Shown here: positions 38,007-51,637 of the stretch, piece after piece
Numbering within the stretch: the first letter of the stretch is position 1
Layout of the letters: every line of letters starts with the position of its first letter
NCBI RefSeq assembly: GCF_055900595.2
Contig: NZ_CM148325.1
Reading direction: 5' to 3' (one strand)
Length of the DNA: 64,000 nucleotides
Position numbers and translations under genes: made by a program
Notes under the pieces: model-generated
Seen by the model: only the letters and a program-made list of their open reading frames with translations
Database searches by the model: none
What the model was told of the DNA's origin: nothing

Positions 38007-38370
38007 GTCGACAGGGAGTCAGACAACGAAGTGAACATCAGGATGATGACACTTCTGCAGGACACACCAGGAGGGTGTTTCAGGGAAAGGCTTCTGGATG
38101 AAGCGAAGAGGATGACGCAGGACGCGTTAAAGGACACCTCCAGGATGGAGAATGAGAACCGGTCAGGATGATTCGGTGGGTCAGGAAGGCCAGGGACACT
38201 TCAGGATGAAGTATCACATCGGGGTGGTGTGAGCAGGAAGCAATAGTTCAGGATGAACGATTGGCCGCAAGGCCAGAGGAAAAGTTGTCAAGGATGAGCA
38301 GGGAGCAACAAAAGTAGCTGGAATGCTGCGAAACGAACCGGGAGCACTGTGAATACAGTGCTCCCTTTTT
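38007..38370 (+). ncRNA. csrB: CsrB regulatory RNA (CsrA-sequestering)
   Basis: Begins gtcgacagggagtcagacaacgaag; more than 15 CAGGA(U/A)G-type GGA motifs; ends with hairpin ccgggagcactgtgaatacagtgctccc plus T run. Confidence 0.85.
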
Positions 38371-38379
38371 GTGCACAGA

Positions 38380-39090
38380 AAACCCCCAGCTAGGCTGGGG
38401 GTTCCGGAAAGCTTTCAGCTTTGAGCCAGTTATTAAAACCCCTTTTGATTTGTTAAAACACCTTGCGGTCTGGCAACTGCAAGTGTCAAACAAGAAATCA
38501 AAAGGGGGTCCCAATGGGGGACGAAAAGAGCTTAGCGCACACCCGCTGGAACTGTAAATATCACATAGTTTTTGCGCCGAAATACCGAAGACTGGCGTTT
38601 TACGGAGAGAAGCGTAGGGCGATAGGCAGTATTTTGAGAAAGCTGTGTGAGTGGAAAAGCGTACGGATTCTGGAAGCAGAGTGCTGCGCAGATCATATCC
38701 ATATGCTTGTGGAAATCCCACCCAAAATGAGCGTATCCGGCTTTATGGGATATCTGAAAGGGAAAAGCAGTCTGATGCTTTACGAGCAGTTTGGGGATTT
38801 GAAATTCAAATACAGAAACAGGGAGTTCTGGTGCCGAGGGTACTATGTCGATACGGTGGGTAAGAACACGGCGAAGATACAGGACTACATAAAGCACCAG
38901 CTTGAAGAGGATAAAATGGGGGAGCAGTTATCGATTCCATATCCGGGCAGCCCGTTTACGGGCCGTAAGTAACGAAGTTGAATGCAAATGTCAGATCGTA
39001 TGCGCCTGTTAGGGCGCGGCTGGTAACAGAGCCTTACAGGCGCATTTGAAAAACCTCCGGCTATGCCGGAGGATATTTATTTTTATTCCT
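38380..39090 (+). mobile_element. IS200-type insertion sequence (IS200/IS605 family), about 0.7 kb
   Basis: Left-end hairpin acccccagctaggctgggggtt, Y1 transposase gene, right-end hairpins (cctgtaaggctc..., cctccggctatgccggagg); boundaries approximate. Confidence 0.7.
38514..38972 (+). CDS. tnpA: IS200 transposase TnpA (HUH/Y1 family)
   Basis: MGDEKSLAHTRWNCKYHIVFAPKYRR...CCADHIHMLVEIPPK...RNREFWCRGYYVDTVG; 152 aa; start trimmed from ORF track (38463). Confidence 0.85.
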   Translation: MGDEKSLAHTRWNCKYHIVFAPKYRRLAFYGEKRRAIGSILRKLCEWKSVRILEAECCADHIHMLVEIPPKMSVSGFMGYLKGKSSLMLYEQFGDLKFKYRNREFWCRGYYVDTVGKNTAKIQDYIKHQLEEDKMGEQLSIPYPGSPFTGRK

Positions 39091-40708: not shown

Positions 40709-41127
40709 AAAATTGCCGTTTTAAGCAAACTGAATCGAATCTTTTCAGGCAAATGCCAGTAAAAACTGCTTCATAGCGCGGATTTTTACTGGCGTTTGCC
40801 TGGAGTCAAGCGATCCATTTCATACTCTTCTTTATTTCTTCGTTTTAACCCTTCCTTTCTTGTTCTTGTTTTCATTTCCGTGAAGTGGATTCCACCGTCC
40901 AGGGCTAATGCCAAAATCGGGCCTCATTGAACGCATTAATGTTGTGTTGTTGCACGGTGAGCCGCTATGGCGCGCTTTTTATACTGTTATTGCCAGATAT
41001 AAACACGCGCCGTATTCGGCGAACGACCTATAAAAACGGCAAAAAATACCCTACGTCACCTCTGATTTCCTGGCGATGTCGCAGTCCAGAGTGAGCGTGG
41101 CTAACGCGAATTTTCAGGAGTGCAACA

Positions 41128-42480
41128 ATGAGTTCTTTAAGTCAGGCTGCGAGCAGTGTGGAAAAACGCACGAATGCTCGTTACTGGATAGTGGTGATGT
41201 TGTTTATCGTCACATCCTTCAACTACGGCGACCGCGCTACGCTCTCTATCGCCGGTTCGGAAATGGCCAAAGATATCGGCCTTGATCCTGTGGGAATGGG
41301 CTATGTGTTCTCTGCCTTCTCATGGGCTTATGTTATCGGGCAGATCCCTGGTGGCTGGTTGCTGGATCGTTTTGGTTCAAAACGCGTCTACTTTTGGTCG
41401 ATCTTTATCTGGTCGATGTTTACCTTGCTGCAAGGCTTCGTCGATATCTTTAGTGGATTCGGCATTATCGTTGCCCTGTTTACGCTGCGCTTCCTGGTCG
41501 GGCTTGCTGAAGCGCCATCTTTCCCTGGCAACAGCCGCATTGTTGCGGCCTGGTTTCCGGCGCAGGAAAGGGGAACGGCGGTGTCGATTTTTAACTCCGC
41601 CCAATACTTCGCAACGGTGATCTTCGCGCCGATTATGGGCTGGCTGACTCATGAAGTGGGTTGGTCACATGTCTTCTTCTTCATGGGCGGTCTGGGCATT
41701 GTCATCAGCTTTATCTGGTTGAAAGTCATCCATGAGCCAAATCAACATCCGGGCGTAAATCAGAAAGAGCTGGAGTACATCGCCGCGGGTGGTGCGCTGA
41801 TCAATATGGATCAGCAAAATACCAAAGTTAAAGTGTCGTTCAGCGTGAAGTGGGGGCAGATCAAACAGCTGCTCGGGTCACGGATGATGATCGGCGTTTA
41901 TATCGGTCAGTACTGTATCAACGCCCTGACTTACTTCTTCATTACCTGGTTTCCGGTTTATCTGGTGCAGGCACGCGGGATGTCGATTCTGAAAGCGGGC
42001 TTTGTGGCTTCCGTACCGGCGGTTTGCGGTTTTATCGGCGGCGTGTTGGGGGGGATTATTTCAGACTGGCTGATGCGCCGCACAGGTTCGCTGAACATTG
42101 CGCGTAAAACACCGATCGTGATGGGCATGTTGCTATCAATGGTGATGGTGTTCTGTAACTACGTCAACGTTGAGTGGATGATCATCGGCTTTATGGCGCT
42201 GGCCTTCTTCGGTAAGGGCATTGGGGCGCTGGGTTGGGCAGTAATGGCAGATACCGCGCCAAAAGAGATCAGCGGTCTTTCCGGTGGCCTGTTCAATATG
42301 TTTGGTAACATTTCCGGTATCGTCACGCCAATCGCAATTGGTTATATCGTTGGCACGACTGGCTCCTTTAATGGGGCGCTGATTTATGTTGGTGTTCATG
42401 CCCTAATCGCGGTACTGAGCTACCTGGTGCTGGTGGGCGATATCAAGCGTATCGAGTTGAAACCTGTTGCGGGGCAATAA
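41128..42480 (+). CDS. gudP: Glucarate/galactarate MFS transporter
   Basis: 450 aa MFS transporter upstream of gudX/gudD. Confidence 0.9.
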
Positions 42481-42481
42481 G

Positions 42482-43822
42482 ATGGCGACACAATCCAGTC
42501 CTGTTATTACTGATATGAAAGTCATTCCGGTGGCCGGGCATGACAGCATGTTGCTTAATATTGGTGGGGCACATAACGCATATTTCACCCGCAATATTGT
42601 GGTACTCACCGATAACGCCGGGCATACCGGTATTGGTGAAGCGCCCGGCGGAGAGGTGATTTATCAGACACTGGTCGATGCTATTCCGATGGTGCTGGGC
42701 CAGGAGGTCGCACGCCTGAATAAAGTGGTTCAGCAGGTGCATAAAGGTAATCAGGCAGCCGATTTTGATACCTTCGGCAAAGGTGCCTGGACTTTTGAAT
42801 TGCGCGTTAATGCCGTGGCGGCGCTGGAAGCCGCCTTGCTTGACCTGCTAGGTAAGGCGCTGAATGTTCCGGTCTGCGAACTGTTAGGGCCAGGCAAGCA
42901 ACGCGATGCTATTACTGTCCTCGGTTATCTGTTTTATATCGGTGATCGGACTAAAACCGATCTTCCTTATCTGGAAAATACGCCGGGCAACCATGAGTGG
43001 TATCAATTGCGGCATCAGAAAGCGATGAACAGCGAAGCCGTTGTGCGTCTGGCGGAAGCCTCACAGGATCGCTACGGCTTTAAAGATTTCAAACTTAAGG
43101 GCGGAGTGTTACCTGGCGAGCAAGAAATCGACACTGTTCGTGCATTGAAGAAACGCTTCCCGGATGCGCGGATTACCGTTGATCCCAACGGTGCATGGCT
43201 GCTTGATGAAGCCATTTCTCTGTGCAAAGGGCTGAATGATGTTCTTACCTATGCCGAAGATCCATGCGGAGCAGAACAGGGCTTCTCCGGACGTGAAGTG
43301 ATGGCGGAGTTTCGGCGGGCGACCGGCTTGCCCGTCGCGACTAATATGATCGCCACCAATTGGCGCGAAATGGGCCATGCGGTGATGCTCAATGCGGTAG
43401 ATATTCCACTTGCCGATCCGCACTTCTGGACGCTTTCCGGTGCAGTCCGCGTGGCGCAGCTTTGCGACGACTGGGGGCTGACCTGGGGCTGCCATTCCAA
43501 CAACCATTTCGATATCTCTCTGGCGATGTTTACCCATGTGGGTGCGGCGGCACCGGGTAATCCTACCGCTATCGATACCCACTGGATTTGGCAGGAGGGA
43601 GATTGTCGCCTGACCAAAAATCCGCTGGAGATTAAAAACGGAAAAATTGCCGTTCCTGATGCGCCCGGTCTGGGCGTGGAACTGGACTGGGAGCAGGTAC
43701 AAAAGGCGCATGAGGCCTATAAACGTCTGCCTGGCGGTGCGCGTAACGACGCAGGCCCGATGCAGTACCTGATCCCCGGCTGGACCTTTGACCGTAAACG
43801 TCCCGTTTTCGGCCGTCATTGA
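42482..43822 (+). CDS. gudX: Glucarate dehydratase-related protein (enolase superfamily)
   Basis: [24 protein letters not shown]; paralog of the downstream gene. Confidence 0.9.
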
Positions 43823-43842
43823 TTTTGAAAAAGGACATAAAG

Positions 43843-45183
43843 ATGAGTTCTCAATTTACGACGCCTGTTGTTACTGAAATGCAGGTCATCCCGGTGGCGG
43901 GCCATGACAGTATGCTGATGAATCTGAGTGGTGCACACGCACCGTTCTTCACGCGTAATATTGTGATTATCAAAGATAATTCTGGTCACACTGGCGTAGG
44001 GGAAATTCCCGGCGGCGAGAAAATCCGTAAAACGCTGGAAGATGCAATTCCGCTGGTGGTGGGTAAAACGCTGGGTGAATACAAAAACGTTCTGACGCTG
44101 GTGCGTAATACATTTGCCGATCGTGATGCCGGCGGGCGCGGTTTGCAGACATTTGATTTGCGGACCACTATTCATGTGGTTACCGGGATAGAAGCGGCAA
44201 TGCTGGATCTGCTGGGGCAGCATCTGGGGGTTAACGTGGCATCGCTGCTGGGCGATGGTCAACAGCGTAGCGAAGTCGAAATGCTCGGTTATCTGTTCTT
44301 CGTCGGTAATCGCAAAGCCACACCGCTGCCGTATCAAAGCCAGCCGGATGACTCATGCGACTGGTATCGCCTGCGTCACGAAGAAGCGATGACGCCGGAT
44401 GCGGTGGTGCGCCTGGCGGAAGCGGCATATGAAAAATATGGCTTCAACGATTTCAAACTGAAGGGCGGTGTACTGGCCGGAGAAGAAGAAGCCGAATCTA
44501 TTGTGGCACTGGCGCAACGCTTCCCGCAGGCGCGTATTACCCTCGATCCTAACGGTGCCTGGTCGCTGAACGAAGCGATTAAAATCGGTAAATACCTGAA
44601 AGGTTCGCTGGCTTATGCAGAAGATCCGTGTGGTGCGGAGCAAGGTTTCTCCGGGCGTGAAGTGATGGCAGAGTTCCGTCGCGCGACTGGCCTGCCGACC
44701 GCAACCAATATGATCGCCACCGACTGGCGGCAGATGGGCCATACGCTCTCGTTACAATCCGTTGATATCCCGCTGGCGGATCCGCATTTCTGGACGATGC
44801 AAGGTTCGGTACGTGTGGCGCAAATGTGCCATGAATTTGGCCTGACCTGGGGTTCACACTCTAACAACCACTTCGATATTTCCCTGGCGATGTTTACCCA
44901 TGTAGCCGCTGCTGCACCGGGTAAAATTACTGCTATTGATACGCACTGGATCTGGCAGGAAGGCAATCAGCGTCTGACCAAAGAACCGTTTGAGATCAAA
45001 GGCGGGCTGGTACAGGTGCCGCAAAAACCAGGATTGGGCATAGAAATCGATATGGATCAGGTGATGAAAGCCCACGAGCTGTATCAGAAACACGGGCTTG
45101 GCGCGCGTGACGATGCAATGGGAATGCAGTATCTGATTCCTGGCTGGACGTTCGATAACAAGCGTCCGTGCATGGTGCGTTAA
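43843..45183 (+). CDS. gudD: D-glucarate dehydratase
   Basis: [30 protein letters not shown]; start trimmed from ORF track (43819). Confidence 0.9.
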
Positions 45184-45198
45184 GACAGAAAACCAAAA

Positions 45199-45225
45199 CC
45201 GGCTCTGTCAGGAGCCGGTTTTTAC
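45199..45225. terminator. Bidirectional rho-independent terminator between gudD and barA
   Basis: aaccggctctgtcaggagccggttttt hairpin with flanking A and T runs. Confidence 0.5.
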
Positions 45226-45240
45226 TGGATAACATATTTA

Positions 45241-47997
45241 TTACCCAAGAATTTTGCTGGCTTCGCGCGCTACATTATCCATCTCGTCCAACAGTTCCAG
45301 CAGCTCCGGCTCCAAATCTTCTTCTTTAGTACCGCTGCGTAGCTGTTGTTCGATCAGTTGGCAGAGATTCTTCATACGCGGCACACCGCTATAGCCGCAA
45401 CTGCCATGCAGTTTATGAATCAAATCAACCAGGCCTTCCGGGTTTTCTCCAACCAGCTGTTCCTCAACTTTGTTGCGAACTTCAGGCAGGAAATCGAGTA
45501 ACATTTGCAGCATATCGCGCGCTAAATCGGTTTTTCCTGCTGCCTGGCGTAGTGCCAGTTGCCAGTCGAGGGTCGCATTCGGGTTCACCACAATTTCATT
45601 GACTTCGGGGGTCACGACGCGAGAGGAAATACCGCTGCCAGGCTTGTAGCGCAACAGCAAATTATGCAATCGTTCTTCTTCAATCGGTTTCGCCAGATAA
45701 TCGCTCATCCCTGCGCCAAGCAGCTTCTCTTTTTGCCCGGCCATTGCATGCGCCGTTACCGCGATAACCGGCGTTTGTTGCTGATGTGGGAGCTGGTGGA
45801 TGAGTTCGCAGGCCCGAATTCCGTCCATGTCCGGCATTTGAATATCCATTAAGATCAGATCGAACGGCATCTGTTTCGCCCGTTCAACGGCCTGATGCCC
45901 GCTATCGCAAAGTTCCACATGTTGCACCATATCTTCCAGCAATGCGCCGATAAGTTTCAGGTTAGCGGGGTTGTCATCAACCGCCATGACTGTCATTGCC
46001 AGCTTACTTTCATCGGTTACAGGCAAAAGCGTGTTTTGTTTGTGATGACAAAATTCCGTCAGGGCAGGGAACAGGCGTGTAGGTGTTAATGGTTTCAGCA
46101 GACACGCGCCGATACCATCTTGCTTAAGTTTTTCAGCATTGACTTGTGCATGGCAAGGAAGTGCCAGCATCAGAAAATCGGTCATCGATACCGCTTTCGC
46201 TAATCGCTCATGTTGCATTGTTAGCGGCTCGCGGAAGGTCACCGCAATGCCTAATAACATCATGTCGTAATGCGCGGGAGGCAGCGCGGAGAACGTTGGG
46301 CTATAAACCACTTCCAGCGGCGTTTCACTTAAAATATCCAGCGTGCATTGCGCTGCTGCGGAGTTTGGTTCGACATAGGCCAGGCGCTTGCCGGCGAGGC
46401 ACTGGGTGGATGGCCCTTCGATAATAATGTTCGGATTCAGATCGAGATTAATGTGGAACCAGAAAGTTGAACCGCGATTCGGCTGGCTATGGAACGAAAT
46501 ATCGCCGCCCATTTCATTAACCAGTTTCTGTGTGATCACCAGCCCCAGCCCGGTGCCACCATGACGGCGGGAAATACTGGCATCAGCCTGTCGGAAGGCC
46601 TGGAATAAGCGCGATTGATCGCGTTCCGGAATACCAATGCCGGTATCCCGAATCTGCACTTCAATCTGCACTTTGGTATTACTCAGCGCACGTTTTTCTA
46701 CCAGAATATCAATGTTGCCATTCTCGGTGAATTTAATTGCATTCCCTACCAGGTTAGTGATGATTTGCTGTAATCGCAGTGGGTCGCCAATTACATTATC
46801 GGGCACGTCGCTCTTAATATTGAGCGTCAGTTCCAGCCCTTTATCGTGAGAAGAATGTGCCAGCAGGGTAACGACTTCATCCAGCGTGCTGCGTAGTGGG
46901 AATGGAATACTTTCCAGAATCAGCTTACCTGCTTCCAGTTTCGAGAAGTCGAGAACATCATTAATAATTGCCAGCAAATTATTTGCCGAACGTTCAATCG
47001 TATTCAGGTGATCGCGCTGCGTTGGTGTTAATTCTGTTTTCAGCGTCAGGCGGGTAAAGCCAATAACGCCATTGAGCGGAGTTCGCAGCTCGTGGGACAT
47101 ATTTGCCAGAAACTCAGACTTAATCCGCGCCGCTTCCTGGGCACGTTTTTTCGCCAGATCCAACTCAACGTTCTGAATTTCCATCTGCTCCAGCGTTTCA
47201 CGTAGATCGGACGTCGCCTGGTCGATATTGTGCTGCATCTCTTCGTGATAAGCTGCCAGCGACATTGCCATCGAGTTGATGCCATTTTTCAGCATATCCA
47301 GCTCGCCGAGCATAAATCCTTCCACTCGGCTGTCGAGTTGTCCGCGACGGATACGGTCGACGGTATTCACCATGTTGCGAATTGGACCGGTTACATCACG
47401 CATGAGTCGCCAGCCAAAAATAAGCGCAATACCGATACAAAACAGCATCATCACGCTGGAAATAAAGATCTCTTTATATTGCTGCAAGCGAACCGATTTT
47501 AGATCCAGTTCAAGCGCGATATATCCCAGCATATTTTGACTATTTTTGGCATCACTACTGGGCGATTCGTCGGGGGAATAACTCTCGGAAATAATTGGTG
47601 TGCGTAAGATCATAATATCACCGTCACGTGTGACAGTGAGCTGGCGAGGAAACGGCACGTTGCTGCCGAGCTGCATTGATGAGGGATCAAGATGAAAATT
47701 GGAGGTGACAAAGAGTCGGTTATTTTCATCATAAACCGAAATCGCGCGAACAATATCGGAATGGCGACGATGCAGTACGCTTATTAACTGACCGATAGAT
47801 TCGCGATTTTGCAGGCTCATGCCATATTCAGTAGAAACTGCAAGCGGCTCAATAATGCTGGCTCCGGCATCTTCCAGTTGACGCTGCAAGTCGTTATAGC
47901 GATGCACAACGAAAAAGATACTCAGCAATAAACCAATAAGGACGGTCGGTGCCAGGATCAGAATCATCATGCGTGCGCGCAGGCTGTAGTTGGTCAT
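45241..47997 (-). CDS. barA: Hybrid sensor histidine kinase BarA
   Basis: 918 aa; HAMP, HisKA (SHELRTPLN), REC and HPt domains. Confidence 0.95.
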
Positions 47998-48053: not shown

Positions 48054-49355
48054 ATGGCGCAATTCTACTCTGCAAAACGACGCACGACGACGCGTCAGAT
48101 CATAACTGTTTCAGTCAACGACCTCGACTCTTTTGGTCAGGGCGTGGCACGACATAACGGCAAAGCGTTATTTATTCCTGGATTATTGCCACAGGAAAAC
48201 GCGGAAGTTACTGTTACTGAAGATAAAAAACAGTACGCCCGCGCTAAAGTCGTGCGCCGGTTAAGCGATAGCCCGGAACGCGAAACGCCACGCTGCCCTC
48301 ATTTTGGCGTATGCGGTGGCTGTCAGCAACAACACGCCAGCGAGGATTTACAGCAGCGAAGCAAAAGTGCGGCACTTGCCCGATTAATGAAACACGAAGT
48401 CTCTGAAGTGATCGCCGATGTTCCCTGGGGCTATCGCCGTCGCGCGCGTTTAAGTTTGAACTACTTACCGAAAACACAGCAACTTCAGATGGGGTTTCGC
48501 AAAGCGGGCTCCAGTGACATTGTCGACGTTAAACAATGCCCCATTTTAGTGCCCCAACTTGAAGCATTGCTGCCCAAAGTCAGGGCATGCCTGGGCAGCT
48601 TACAAGCTATGCGCCATCTTGGTCATGTTGAACTGGTACAGGCAACCAGCGGCAAGCTGATGATTTTGCGCCATACCGCACCGCTAAGTTCGGCAGATCG
48701 CGAAAAACTGGAACGCTTTTCGCATTCTGAAGGCCTGGATCTGTATCTCGCCCCCGATAGTGAGATACTCGAAACCGTCTCTGGTGAGATGCCCTGGTAT
48801 GACTCAAACGGGTTGCGCTTAACTTTTAGCCCGCGCGATTTTATTCAGGTCAATGCGGGTGTGAACCAAAAAATGGTAGCGCGTGCGTTGGAATGGCTGG
48901 ATGTACAACCTGAAGATCGCGTACTGGATCTGTTCTGCGGTATGGGCAACTTTACACTGCCATTGGCGACACAAGCTGCCAGTGTGGTGGGTGTAGAAGG
49001 CGTTCCGGCGCTGGTTGAAAAAGGCCAGCAGAATGCGCGTCTTAATGGCTTACACAATGTGACGTTTTATCACGAAAATCTTGAAGAAGATGTCACAAAG
49101 CAGCCGTGGGCGAAAAACGGCTTCGATAAAGTGTTGCTGGACCCGGCGCGAGCAGGTGCCGCAGGTGTTATGCAGCAAATTATAAAACTGGAACCTATTC
49201 GTATAGTTTATGTATCCTGTAATCCTGCAACGCTGGCTCGGGATAGCGAAGCGTTATTAAAAGCAGGATATACCATTGCGCGACTGGCGATGCTGGATAT
49301 GTTCCCACACACGGGACATCTGGAATCGATGGTACTTTTCTCGCGCGTTAAATAG
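48054..49355 (+). CDS. rlmD: 23S rRNA (uracil1939-C5)-methyltransferase
   Basis: [19 protein letters not shown]; [14 protein letters not shown] Fe-S motif; 433 aa. Confidence 0.9.
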
Positions 49356-49402
49356 TTACGATTTGCCGATTTCGGCAGGTCTGGTCCCTAAAGGAGAGGA
49401 CG

Positions 49403-51637
49403 ATGGTTGCGGTAAGAAGTGCACATATCAATAAGGCTGGTGAATTTGATCCGGAAAAATGGATCGCAAGTCTGGGTATTACCAGCCAGAAGTCGTGTGA
49501 GTGCTTAGCCGAAACCTGGGCGTATTGTCTGCAACAGACGCAGGGGCATCCGGATGCCAGTCTGTTATTGTGGCGTGGTGTTGAGATGGTGGAGATCCTC
49601 TCGACATTAAGTATGGACATTGACACGCTGCGGGCGGCGCTGCTGTTCCCTCTGGCGGATGCCAACGTAGTTAGCGAAGATGTGCTGCGTGAGAGCGTCG
49701 GTAAGTCGGTCGTTAACCTTATTCACGGCGTGCGTGATATGGCGGCGATCCGCCAGCTGAAAGCGACGCATACCGATTCTGTTTCCTCCGAACAGGTCGA
49801 TAACGTTCGCCGGATGTTATTGGCGATGGTCGATGATTTCCGCTGCGTGGTCATCAAACTGGCAGAGCGTATTGCTCATCTGCGCGAAGTAAAAGACGCG
49901 CCGGAAGATGAACGCGTACTGGCGGCAAAAGAGTGCACCAATATCTACGCGCCGTTGGCGAACCGTCTTGGGATTGGACAACTGAAATGGGAGCTGGAAG
50001 ATTACTGCTTCCGTTATCTCCACCCGACCGAATACAAACGCATCGCAAAACTGCTGCATGAACGCCGTCTCGACCGCGAACACTATATCGAAGAGTTTGT
50101 CGGTCATCTGCGCGCTGAGATGAAAGCTGAAGGCGTTAAAGCTGAAGTGTATGGTCGTCCGAAACACATCTACAGTATCTGGCGCAAAATGCAGAAAAAG
50201 AACCTCGCCTTCGATGAGCTGTTTGATGTGCGTGCGGTACGTATTGTCGCCGAGCGTTTACAGGATTGTTATGCCGCACTGGGGATAGTGCACACTCACT
50301 ATCGCCACCTGCCGGATGAGTTTGATGATTACGTTGCTAACCCGAAACCAAACGGTTATCAGTCTATTCATACCGTGGTTCTGGGGCCGGGTGGCAAAAC
50401 CGTTGAGATCCAAATCCGCACCAAACAGATGCATGAAGATGCAGAGTTGGGTGTTGCTGCGCACTGGAAATATAAAGAGGGCGCGGCTGCTGGCGGCGCA
50501 CGTTCGGGACATGAAGACCGAATTGCCTGGCTGCGTAAACTGATTGCGTGGCAGGAAGAGATGGCTGATTCCGGCGAAATGCTCGACGAAGTACGCAGCC
50601 AGGTCTTTGACGACCGGGTGTATGTCTTTACGCCGAAAGGTGATGTCGTTGATTTGCCTGCGGGATCAACGCCGCTGGACTTCGCTTACCACATCCACAG
50701 TGATGTCGGACACCGCTGCATCGGGGCAAAAATAGGCGGGCGCATTGTGCCGTTCACCTACCAGTTGCAGATGGGCGACCAGATTGAAATTATCACCCAG
50801 AAACAGCCGAACCCCAGCCGTGACTGGTTAAACCCAAACCTCGGTTACGTCACAACCAGCCGTGGGCGTTCGAAAATTCACGCCTGGTTCCGTAAACAGG
50901 ACCGTGACAAAAACATTCTGGCAGGGCGGCAAATCCTTGACGACGAGCTGGAACATCTGGGGATCAGCCTGAAAGAAGCAGAAAAACATCTGCTGCCGCG
51001 TTACAACTTCAATGATGTCGACGAGTTGTTGGCAGCGATTGGTGGCGGGGATATCCGTCTCAATCAGATGGTGAACTTCCTGCAATCACAATTTAATAAA
51101 CCGAGTGCCGAAGAGCAGGATGCCGCCGCGCTGAAGCAACTTCAGCAAAAAAGCTATACGCCACAAAACCGCAGTAAAGATAACGGTCGGGTGGTGGTTG
51201 AAGGTGTCGGCAACCTGATGCACCACATCGCGCGCTGCTGCCAGCCGATTCCTGGAGATGAGATTGTCGGCTTCATTACCCAGGGGCGCGGTATTTCAGT
51301 ACACCGCGCCGATTGCGAACAACTGGCGGAACTGCGCTCCCATGCGCCAGAACGCATTGTTGACGCGGTATGGGGTGAGAGCTACTCCGCCGGATATTCG
51401 CTGGTGGTCCGCGTGGTGGCTAATGATCGTAGTGGGTTGTTACGTGATATCACGACCATTCTCGCCAACGAGAAAGTGAACGTGCTTGGCGTTGCCAGCC
51501 GTAGCGACACCAAACAGCAACTGGCAACCATCGACATGACTATTGAGATTTACAACCTGCAAGTGCTGGGCCGCGTGCTGGGTAAACTCAACCAGGTGCC
51601 GGATGTTATCGACGCGCGTCGGTTGCACGGGAGTTAG
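49403..51637 (+). CDS. relA: GTP pyrophosphokinase ((p)ppGpp synthetase I)
   Basis: 744 aa, MVAVRSAHINKAGEFDPEKWIASLGI. Confidence 0.95.
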   Translation: MVAVRSAHINKAGEFDPEKWIASLGITSQKSCECLAETWAYCLQQTQGHPDASLLLWRGVEMVEILSTLSMDIDTLRAALLFPLADANVVSEDVLRESVGKSVVNLIHGVRDMAAIRQLKATHTDSVSSEQVDNVRRMLLAMVDDFRCVVIKLAERIAHLREVKDAPEDERVLAAKECTNIYAPLANRLGIGQLKWELEDYCFRYLHPTEYKRIAKLLHERRLDREHYIEEFVGHLRAEMKAEGVKAEVYGRPKHIYSIWRKMQKKNLAFDELFDVRAVRIVAERLQDCYAALGIVHTHYRHLPDEFDDYVANPKPNGYQSIHTVVLGPGGKTVEIQIRTKQMHEDAELGVAAHWKYKEGAAAGGARSGHEDRIAWLRKLIAWQEEMADSGEMLDEVRSQVFDDRVYVFTPKGDVVDLPAGSTPLDFAYHIHSDVGHRCIGAKIGGRIVPFTYQLQMGDQIEIITQKQPNPSRDWLNPNLGYVTTSRGRSKIHAWFRKQDRDKNILAGRQILDDELEHLGISLKEAEKHLLPRYNFNDVDELLAAIGGGDIRLNQMVNFLQSQFNKPSAEEQDAAALKQLQQKSYTPQNRSKDNGRVVVEGVGNLMHHIARCCQPIPGDEIVGFITQGRGISVHRADCEQLAELRSHAPERIVDAVWGESYSAGYSLVVRVVANDRSGLLRDITTILANEKVNVLGVASRSDTKQQLATIDMTIEIYNLQVLGRVLGKLNQVPDVIDARRLHGS

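Follow-up and report, generated by a model that had tools for sequence, protein, structure and literature searches.

The tandem gudX-gudD pair of Escherichia coli is already known, and crystal structures exist for both of its proteins. In strain K-12, GudX (b2788, GlucDRP) is represented by 4IL0 and by chains C and D of 4GYP, and GudD (b2787) by 1EC7, 1EC8, 1EC9 and 1ECQ. GudD is taken to remove the C5 proton of its substrate with Lys207 or with His339 (paired with Asp313), to stabilize the enediolate on a Mg2+ ion held by Asp235, Glu260 and Asn289, and to expel the 4-OH, presumably yielding 5-dehydro-4-deoxy-D-glucarate. Its contacts with glucarate include Thr103, His368 and Arg422. Cap loops set substrate specificity in the enolase superfamily. 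The mandelate-racemase subgroup is marked by a KxK motif together with a His-Asp dyad and three carboxylate or amide metal ligands at the ends of the barrel strands (Babbitt et al. 1996; Gerlt, Babbitt and Rayment 2005).

The D-glucarate dehydratase of Pseudomonas putida (PDB 1BQG), a structurally characterized single enzyme, belongs to the GudD clade. It is 72% identical to GudD and only 65% identical to GudX, possesses all of the active-site residues, and has a GudD-type cap loop that includes (IA)VHAVT. This likeness makes the GudD type the canonical dehydratase form and the GudX lid a derived or divergent one. The protein of entries 3N6H, 3N6J and 3PFR, deposited as 'Mandelate racemase/muconate lactonizing protein' and presumably originating from Actinobacillus succinogenes, falls in the GudX clade, being 74% identical to the GudX studied here vs 62% to GudD. 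It typifies a second GudX sub-type (Pasteurellaceae, Orbaceae, Entomomonas and a Neisseria) with the same 19-aa loop, NWREM and mostly WGCHSNNH. This sub-type is 72-74% identical to the enterobacterial one, while the corresponding GudD proteins are 78-85% identical. The L-talarate/galactarate, galactonate, mannonate and rhamnonate dehydratases share with GudX and GudD the fold and the Mg2+-dependent abstraction of an alpha-proton. Their models match the pair weakly (TalGalacDh 64.7 bits vs a cut-off of 500), and neither protein is a member of these other acid-sugar dehydratases.

Organization of the gud locus

The window is the whole 64,000-nucleotide stretch of DNA that was analyzed. It contains gudX, for a glucarate dehydratase-related protein, at 42482-43822 (+) and gudD, for D-glucarate dehydratase, at 43843-45183 (+). 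Each is an open reading frame starting from an internal ATG and encoding exactly 446 aa, where an earlier note on this DNA had described adjacent genes for proteins of about that size. The annotations of K-12 and of strain E200086 agree with both calls. The same genes occur in the same order in K-12, with the matching neighborhood yqcC-truC-yqcA-gudP-gudX-gudD-barA-rlmD-relA. The note was right to treat the pair as a known feature of the locus, which belongs to the textbook genes of E. coli; recognizing it is correct but an ordinary finding. Nucleotide divergence between the window and K-12 is about 3.1-3.3%, nearly all of it synonymous. The window lacks the REP-like spacer (~174 nt) found between gudD and barA in K-12 and, unlike K-12, has an IS200 element between csrB and yqcC.

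The first gene of the operon is gudP (41128-42480, +), annotated as such in E200086 and K-12, which encodes an MFS glucarate/galactarate transporter scoring 537 bits against the D-galactonate-transporter subfamily model TIGR00893. Its junction with gudX reads TAA-G-ATG, leaving 1 nt between the gudP stop and the gudX ATG. The gudX-gudD spacer (43823-43842, +) is 20 nt long and includes a Shine-Dalgarno sequence, AAGGA, at 43831-43835. A scan of this spacer for promoters and terminators returned no site. An internal promoter or terminator uncoupling gudX from gudD was rejected, since no credible candidate was seen and the counts did not exceed shuffled expectation. A G+C-rich hairpin, AAAACCGGCTC-TGTCAG-GAGCCGGTTTTT (45195-45223, no strand assigned), lies between gudD and barA, which are convergent, and is likely a bidirectional intrinsic terminator closing the gud operon.

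The order transporter-gudX-gudD on one strand, the minimal spacers and the position at the yqcA/barA locus are those of the gudPXD operon. Co-transcription of gudX and gudD with gudP as this E. coli operon is the best explanation of the arrangement. The operon is expected to be under the activator CdaR (SdaR), which would respond to glucarate, galactarate or glycerate. A sigma-70 scan upstream of gudP found no strong promoter, which is compatible with an activator-dependent one.

Sequence relationship of GudX and GudD

A full-length BLASTP comparison aligned GudX and GudD with 283/448 identical positions (63%), 78% positives and 592 bits (E = 0), far above chance. This pairwise alignment, proposed in the earlier note as a check, also bears out the similar N-termini and conserved internal blocks described there. 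An 11-aa motif is common to both proteins, at aa 14-24 of GudX (42521-42553, +) and aa 15-25 of GudD (43885-43917, +), and long identical stretches, e.g. of 38 aa and 16 aa, lie further inside. Each protein is nearly the same as its K-12 counterpart. GudX matches K-12 GudX (PDB 4IL0 and 4GYP_C, titled 'Glucarate dehydratase-related protein') at 442/446 positions (99%, 1040 bits), and none of its four substitutions (E58/D, D142/E, L164/V and K379/Q) is at a clade-invariant site. GudD differs from K-12 by two substitutions, Q394/E and I400/V, and is thus 444/446 (99.6%) identical to PDB 1EC7, 'Glucarate dehydratase'. Because of this identity to a crystallized and characterized enzyme, GudD is assigned the predicted activity of a D-glucarate (and L-idarate) dehydratase, EC 4.2.1.40.

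Family models bring out both the kinship and the difference. The two-domain architecture of the enolase superfamily, an N-terminal capping domain and a C-terminal modified TIM barrel, was recovered: Pfam MR_MLE_C matches both proteins (173.5 bits for GudX, 163.8 bits for GudD) and MR_MLE_N matches GudX (35.9 bits), with GudD below threshold for the latter although it is the solved protein 1EC7. The pair are therefore enolase-superfamily paralogs, as had been claimed. TIGR03247, the curated NCBIfam equivalog for glucarate dehydratase with a cut-off of 828.7 bits, is passed by GudD (898.5 bits) and failed by GudX (750.1 bits). GudD alone of the two thus qualifies, in line with the earlier note, which took gudD to be the active glucarate dehydratase. 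The same division was seen in five further X/D pairs from other taxa, with 844-894 bits for the GudD clade and 710-753 bits for the GudX clade. Classing GudX as an equivalog glucarate dehydratase would therefore be wrong, for all its plain resemblance to one. RefSeq names its product only 'enolase C-terminal domain-like protein', in keeping with the note's remark on the less clear role of gudX.

Conserved catalytic residues and a remodeled lid

Catalytic residues were the second check that had been suggested. All 17 active-site positions examined are invariant in 8 GudX and 9 GudD-clade sequences; the positions are those known for the GlucD structure, position 341 alone being corroborated here, through the PDB mutants 1JDF and 1JCT. 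The KxK motif is K204-L-K206 in GudX (43091-43099, +) and K205-L-K207 in GudD (44455-44463, +). The metal ligands are Asp234, Glu259 and Asn288 in GudX (43181-43183, 43256-43258 and 43343-43345, +) and Asp235, Glu260 and Asn289 in GudD (44545-44547, 44620-44622 and 44707-44709, +). In GudX, His338 (43493-43495, +) is the equivalent of the GudD general base/acid His339 and has Asp312 (43415-43417, +) as its dyad partner; the GudD dyad comprises Asp313 and His339 (44779-44781 and 44857-44859, +). Both proteins thus carry the residues of the mandelate-racemase subgroup, all of them invariant in the 17 sequences. GudX also keeps the GudD glucarate-contact residues unchanged, including the equivalents of Thr103, His368 and Arg422.

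The differences lie mainly in the loops over the active site. The two proteins diverge most in the cap-domain loop, aa 87-116 of GudX (42740-42829, +), whose GudD counterpart spans aa 88-117 (44104-44193, +). Here sliding-window identity between the two falls to 0.30-0.43. Both indels and six of the 14 residues that discriminate the clades fall in this loop, and a GudX-specific 19-aa signature within it is invariant in eight GudX sequences spanning Enterobacterales, Pasteurellaceae, Orbaceae, Entomomonas and a Neisseria. A second element is the 20s loop, 10 aa in GudX (42557-42586, +), with the clade-specific G28 and a conserved His31; the GudD loop differs. Two GudD mutants in the PDB, 3PWG (S29G+P34A) and 3PWI (P34A), amount to GudD-to-GudX swaps at positions of this loop. 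The complete GudX signature consists of G28, H87, K100, W103, E106, a 2-aa deletion after R108, N110, A113, T145, T256, N293, E296, L318, A321 and R438. The protein of the window is of GudX type at both indels and in every one of the 14 discriminating columns, which places it in the GudX orthologue group. Having long kept all catalytic residues together with a fixed, different lid, GudX offers a clean model of the subfunctionalization of an enolase-superfamily duplicate.

Association with GudD and the role of GudX

GudX is accompanied by GudD well beyond E. coli. All six GudX loci examined outside this species contain a GudD-clade gene beside or near gudX, directly downstream in five of them; in the other, that of Lonepinella, a tctCBA transporter lies between the two. 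The order transporter-gudX-gudD recurs in Buttiauxella, Erwinia, Entomomonas, Gilliamella and a Neisseria. A hexarate-type transporter is always present in the six loci, garL/garR/garK and cdaR usually, and CdaR-type genes (Diacid_rec/HTH_30) adjoin the locus in Lonepinella, Entomomonas and Gilliamella. This context sample is small (7 taxa from the top matches), and a GudX without a GudD neighbor could exist outside it. The strict co-occurrence in these loci, the 14 discriminating positions and the two indels are incremental comparative results. The two proteins also share a PDB entry, 4GYP, which lists the GudD sequence together with two GudX chains.

Our leading explanation, held tentatively, is that GudX is a catalytically equipped subunit acting in the same pathway within a mixed oligomer with GudD. 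GudX would associate physically with GudD in this oligomer and would be neither a decaying copy nor a separate enzyme serving some unrelated pathway. It would keep the whole catalytic and substrate-binding set and differ in an invariant lid, formed by the cap loop around Thr104 and the 20s loop, and this remodeled lid may alter substrate acceptance or turnover rate. We infer that GudD and GudX act physiologically as a heteromer and that catalysis by GudX matters in vivo. The 4GYP co-crystal is itself no proof that a heteromer forms or matters in vivo.

GudX could instead be an autonomous enzyme that acts on a different substrate in the cell and associates with GudD only incidentally. The candidates are some other diacid sugar and a glucarate or galactarate lactone imported by GudP. 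Retention of the catalytic, metal-binding and carboxylate-binding set over a long divergence argues for real catalysis, and the full conservation of catalytic residues fits such an enzyme equally well. The clade-specific changes are concentrated in the cap loops (positions 29 and 88-114 of GudD), the elements that tune specificity in this superfamily, and all six GudX proteins tested score below the curated equivalog cut-off. However, the unchanged glucarate contacts imply a pocket that is still glucarate-shaped, GudX always occurs with GudD in the loci examined and co-crystallizes with it, and the literature searched mentions no other substrate for it. An independent enzyme appears unlikely, though it deserves serious consideration.

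The mixed oligomer might be taken further. In an obligate gudX-gudD assembly, GudX would give a second kind of active site and extend the substrate pool of the operon, a proposal that we regard as speculative and rather improbable. Such a site could ring-open the 1,4-lactones of glucarate or galactarate directly to 5-dehydro-4-deoxy-glucarate. Direct lactone ring-opening of this type has been reported for the galactarolactone cycloisomerase of Agrobacterium, also of the enolase superfamily. Alternatively, the second site may be a hybrid, completed across the two-fold axis by Arg422 of the partner.

Age of the duplication and selection on both copies

The gudX and gudD genes are 65.5% identical in nucleotide sequence, with a pS of 0.67, a dS of about 1.7 and a dN of 0.30. 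Codon-aligned sliding windows of pS/pN, used as a check for gene conversion, gave a pS of 0.55-0.75 even in blocks with 90% protein identity, and identical nucleotide runs reach 20 nt at most. Sixteen sequences together with P. putida GlucD resolve into two clean clades, the orthologs of four bacterial orders grouping by paralog and not by species. Judged from these saturated synonymous sites, the duplication is ancient. We are all but certain of the gene identities and of the duplication history as described.

Both copies are under strong purifying selection, with a dN/dS relative to K-12 of 0.004/0.127 (about 0.03) for gudX and 0.002/0.146 (about 0.015) for gudD. These values bear on the view that GudX is a redundant, weakly active back-up, a nearly neutral duplicate drifting toward loss. 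Such a copy would agree with GudX being a poor glucarate dehydratase, the purified protein reportedly being only weakly active on glucarate and idarate (Hubbard et al. 1998), and GudD alone is named as the pathway enzyme in the literature searched. A drifting gene would nonetheless not be expected to show so low a dN/dS within E. coli, 84-99% protein identity across Enterobacterales, or retention in at least four bacterial orders with an invariant clade-specific loop. The number of invariant columns is 256 in the GudX clade vs 253 in the GudD clade, and 5,408 of 5,426 complete E. coli genomes carry the gudX-gudD region at >=80% coverage. The back-up reading is strongly disfavored, to the point of being very improbable, and the same evidence (the dN/dS values, the conservation across orders and the presence in nearly every E. 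coli genome) led us to reject pseudogenization or relaxed selection of gudX. Maintenance of the similarity by ongoing gene conversion (concerted evolution) rather than by protein selection might be suggested by the tandem same-orientation copies, the very long identical amino-acid blocks and the rare chimeric GudX/GudD proteins in the database, which show that the copies can exchange sequence. It was rejected, with a negligible chance of being correct, since synonymous sites are saturated everywhere (identical protein blocks included) with no low-dS tract, the longest shared nucleotide run is so short, and the paralogs cluster by type across species and not by genome.

Published evidence on gudX

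A full-text literature search found no paper assigning a function to GudX and no biochemical or genetic test of it, which further accords with the less clear role ascribed to gudX in the earlier note. In a Tn-seq study of Dickeya solani, gudX was among the genes needed on galactarate (PMC10202176). The operon of this organism is gudP-gudX-gudD-garL-garR-garK (PMC10202176, supplement), and with garL downstream of gudX, insertions are expected to be polar on garL; this result was therefore not counted as evidence for GudX function. A paper on the PhoP regulon of Pectobacterium contains expression data only. Glucarate use contributes to the fitness of Salmonella in the host (PMC3877842), which lends the pathway some physiological relevance.

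Identity and organization of the locus

The locus is the already known gudX/gudD pair; the structure of each protein has been solved, and one PDB entry holds both. As the earlier note described, it carries tandem paralogs, each of 446 aa; they align over their full length with 283/448 identities (63%; 78% positives, 592 bits, E = 0), and the 11-residue N-terminal motif quoted there is found in both (nt 42521-42553 in gudX and 43885-43917 in gudD). The assignment of gudD as glucarate dehydratase is borne out by near-identity to PDB 1EC7 ("Glucarate dehydratase"; 1032 bits, two differences) and by a score of 898.5 bits against TIGR03247, the curated NCBIfam equivalog for this enzyme (cut-off 828.7 bits). 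GudX matches PDB 4IL0 and 4GYP chain C ("Glucarate dehydratase-related protein"; 1040 bits, four conservative differences) and falls below the TIGR03247 cut-off at 750.1 bits. Five more pairs from other taxa split likewise (GudD-type 844-894 bits, GudX-type 710-753 bits), and RefSeq's generic name for gudX, merely "enolase C-terminal domain-like protein", accords with this split. The note's description and interpretation, including its view that the role of gudX is less clear, were appropriate.

Genes were called from ORFs, the RefSeq annotation of strain E200086 (100% identical) and the K-12 annotation, with csrB located via Rfam. The order across 38-52 kb is csrB - yqcC - truC - yqcA - gudP - gudX - gudD - barA(-) - rlmD - relA. 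Both gudX (42482-43822) and gudD (43843-45183) lie on the plus strand, so that 42482-45183 runs from the gudX start codon through the gudD stop codon. A single nucleotide separates the end of the gudP stop codon from the gudX ATG, and the 20-nt gudX/gudD spacer holds an AAGGA Shine-Dalgarno 7 nt ahead of the ATG. Scanning the sequence between gudP, gudX and gudD revealed no promoter-like or terminator-like signals; a G+C-rich hairpin with a T5 run after it (45195-45223) sits between gudD and barA, which converge on each other. This is, as predicted from sequence, the anatomy of one gudPXD transcription unit.

The gudD-barA gap (45184-45240) spans just 57 nt and contains a single hairpin. In K-12 and in most complete E. 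coli genomes it is longer by ~174 nt of REP-like sequence (GCCGGATAAGGCGTT...GCATCCGGC), so most of the matching genomes align to the region in two pieces. Antisense ORFs of 122 and 117 aa lie within gudX (43249-43617, minus strand) and gudD (44613-44966, minus strand) at homologous positions; they are mutually similar, share an identical phase relative to the sense frame and lie opposite the best-conserved stretch of the sense strand (aa ~256-378). They seem to follow from conservation of that strand, and nothing indicates a gene.

An old duplication under continued selection

The two copies arose by duplication long ago and have since evolved independently. In a codon alignment, gudX and gudD share 65.5% nucleotide identity with pS 0.67 (dS ~1.7, saturated) and dN 0.30. 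Even within blocks 90% identical as protein, pS is 0.55-0.75, and no stretch of identical nucleotides exceeds 20 nt; selection at the protein level therefore holds these blocks, and gene conversion as their keeper is ruled out. Both genes are under strong purifying selection (dN/dS against K-12 of 0.004/0.127 for gudX and 0.002/0.146 for gudD), and the region is present at at least 80% coverage in 5,408 of 5,426 complete E. coli genomes.

Queried with GudX, the database yielded solely GudX-type proteins, 84-99% identical, from across Enterobacterales, among them those of Salmonella, Enterobacter, Buttiauxella, Erwinia, Pantoea and Mixta. PDB 3N6H is nearer GudX (792 bits) than GudD (623 bits), and used as a query it uncovered a further GudX-type group, made up of proteins from Pasteurellaceae, Orbaceae (Gilliamella), Entomomonas and a single Neisseria. 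An identity matrix and a neighbour-joining tree built from 8 GudX-type and 9 GudD-type sequences (the latter including 4G8T and P. putida GlucD, 1BQG, which groups on the GudD side) gave two clean clades, split by paralog. Together with the codon-level comparison, this pattern effectively excludes concerted evolution. When enterobacterial genomes are compared with those of the Pasteurellaceae/Orbaceae type, GudD shows 78-85% identity and GudX just 72-74%.

Rare GudX-GudD fusions or chimeras of 583-690 aa occur among database proteins (P0001-P0005, P0008 and P0011; query, nt 42482-43819). One joins GudX 1-443 to GudD 1-228, in one E. coli-like and one Salmonella record; another joins GudX 1-229 to GudD 92-446, on 23 contigs. 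Their probable origin is a frameshift, a collapsed assembly or unequal recombination between the two neighbouring genes.

Catalytic core and capping loops

Seventeen GudD active-site positions were compared, following the structural work on GlucD by Gulick et al. (2000, 2001): His32, Thr103, Tyr150, Phe152, Lys205, Lys207, Asp235, Asn237, Glu260, Glu266, Asn289, Asp313, His339, Asn341, Asp366, His368 and Arg422. Position 341 alone is corroborated, by the PDB mutants 1JDF (N341D) and 1JCT (N341L). All 17 are invariant across the 17 sequences of both clades, which argues at the sequence level that GudX is not a pseudoenzyme.

Fourteen columns are fixed differently between the clades. Six of them and both indels fall within GudD residues 88-114, around Thr103, where the 19-residue GudX version of the cap loop is identical in 8/8 GudX sequences and its GudD counterpart has 21 residues; this segment shows the lowest similarity in the E. 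coli pair (30-43% identity in 30-residue windows). In the enolase superfamily, capping-domain loops shut over the substrate and determine specificity, and this clustering of fixed changes points to an altered lid atop an unchanged catalytic core in GudX. The 20s loop contributes S29 (GudD) versus G28 (GudX), and has already been probed by structural biologists: PDB 3PWG (GudD S29G+P34A) and 3PWI (GudD P34A) carry changes that make GudD more like E. coli GudX. Other fixed differences, from GudD to GudX, are E146T, A257T, D294N, Q297E, M319L, S322A and N439R.

Gene neighbourhoods and the role of GudX

Six neighbourhoods were read, and a GudD-type gene and a transporter accompany the GudX gene at every one. 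Erwinia persicina (L003, 2589-11593) has garD<>gudP-gudX-gudD-garL-garR-garK beside barA; Buttiauxella has the E. coli arrangement, gudP-gudX-gudD-barA; Entomomonas and Gilliamella have cdaR and garD<>MFS-gudX-gudD-garL-garR; Neisseria has MFS-gudX-gudD; and Lonepinella has gudD-tctCBA-gudX with cdaR, garK, garR and garL alongside. Erwinia and Dickeya (D. solani, from the supplement of PMC10202176) gather the whole glucarate/galactarate pathway at the yqcA/barA site (garD<>gudP-gudX-gudD-garL-garR-garK), whereas E. coli has only gudPXD there within the region read. Tn-seq in Dickeya solani placed gudX among genes needed for galactarate growth (PMC10202176). The operon there runs gudP-gudX-gudD-garL-garR-garK (supplement), and insertions in gudX are expected to be polar on garL. 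This accounts for the result, which was discounted as evidence of GudX function.

Near-identity to the characterised enzyme, together with a published description of the pathway (PMC3877842), identifies GudD as the D-glucarate/L-idarate dehydratase of glucarate utilization. For the physiological role of GudX, the comparative signature and co-occurrence data provide a compact set of sites at which to address it. Tentatively, and at a little under an even chance, GudX would be a functioning, catalytically equipped component of GudD's pathway, probably within a mixed oligomer with GudD. This is suggested by the fully retained catalytic and ligand-binding set, the invariant, clade-specific lid, the strong purifying selection and the operon shared with GudD in every locus read; additionally, PDB entry 4GYP contains both proteins together. 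The main rival, that GudX is an independent enzyme acting on a different hexarate-related substrate, is possible but rather unlikely. Purified GudX is reportedly a poor glucarate/idarate dehydratase whose true substrate is described as unknown (Hubbard et al. 1998; UniProt). Neutral redundancy is effectively excluded by selection, identity across Enterobacterales, the clades and the invariant residues.

Strain background

Across 41000-45300 and 48054-51637, the window shows only ~97% nucleotide identity to the vast majority of the 5,425 complete E. coli genomes compared, with at least 99% identity in only 8 for gudPXD and 18 for rlmD-relA; dS against K-12 is ~0.13-0.15. The strain therefore comes from an E. 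coli lineage that is both rare and divergent. For gudPXD its closest match is E200086 (human stool, Mali). A 709-bp IS200 (38371-39079), absent from K-12 and identically inserted in E200086, lies directly 3' of csrB (38016-38375) and ~50 nt upstream of yqcC (start 39130). It contains the Rfam STnc490 leader RNA (38381-38504) and an IS200/IS605 tnpA ending at 38972, and the adjacent csrB is intact at full length (373.6 bits).
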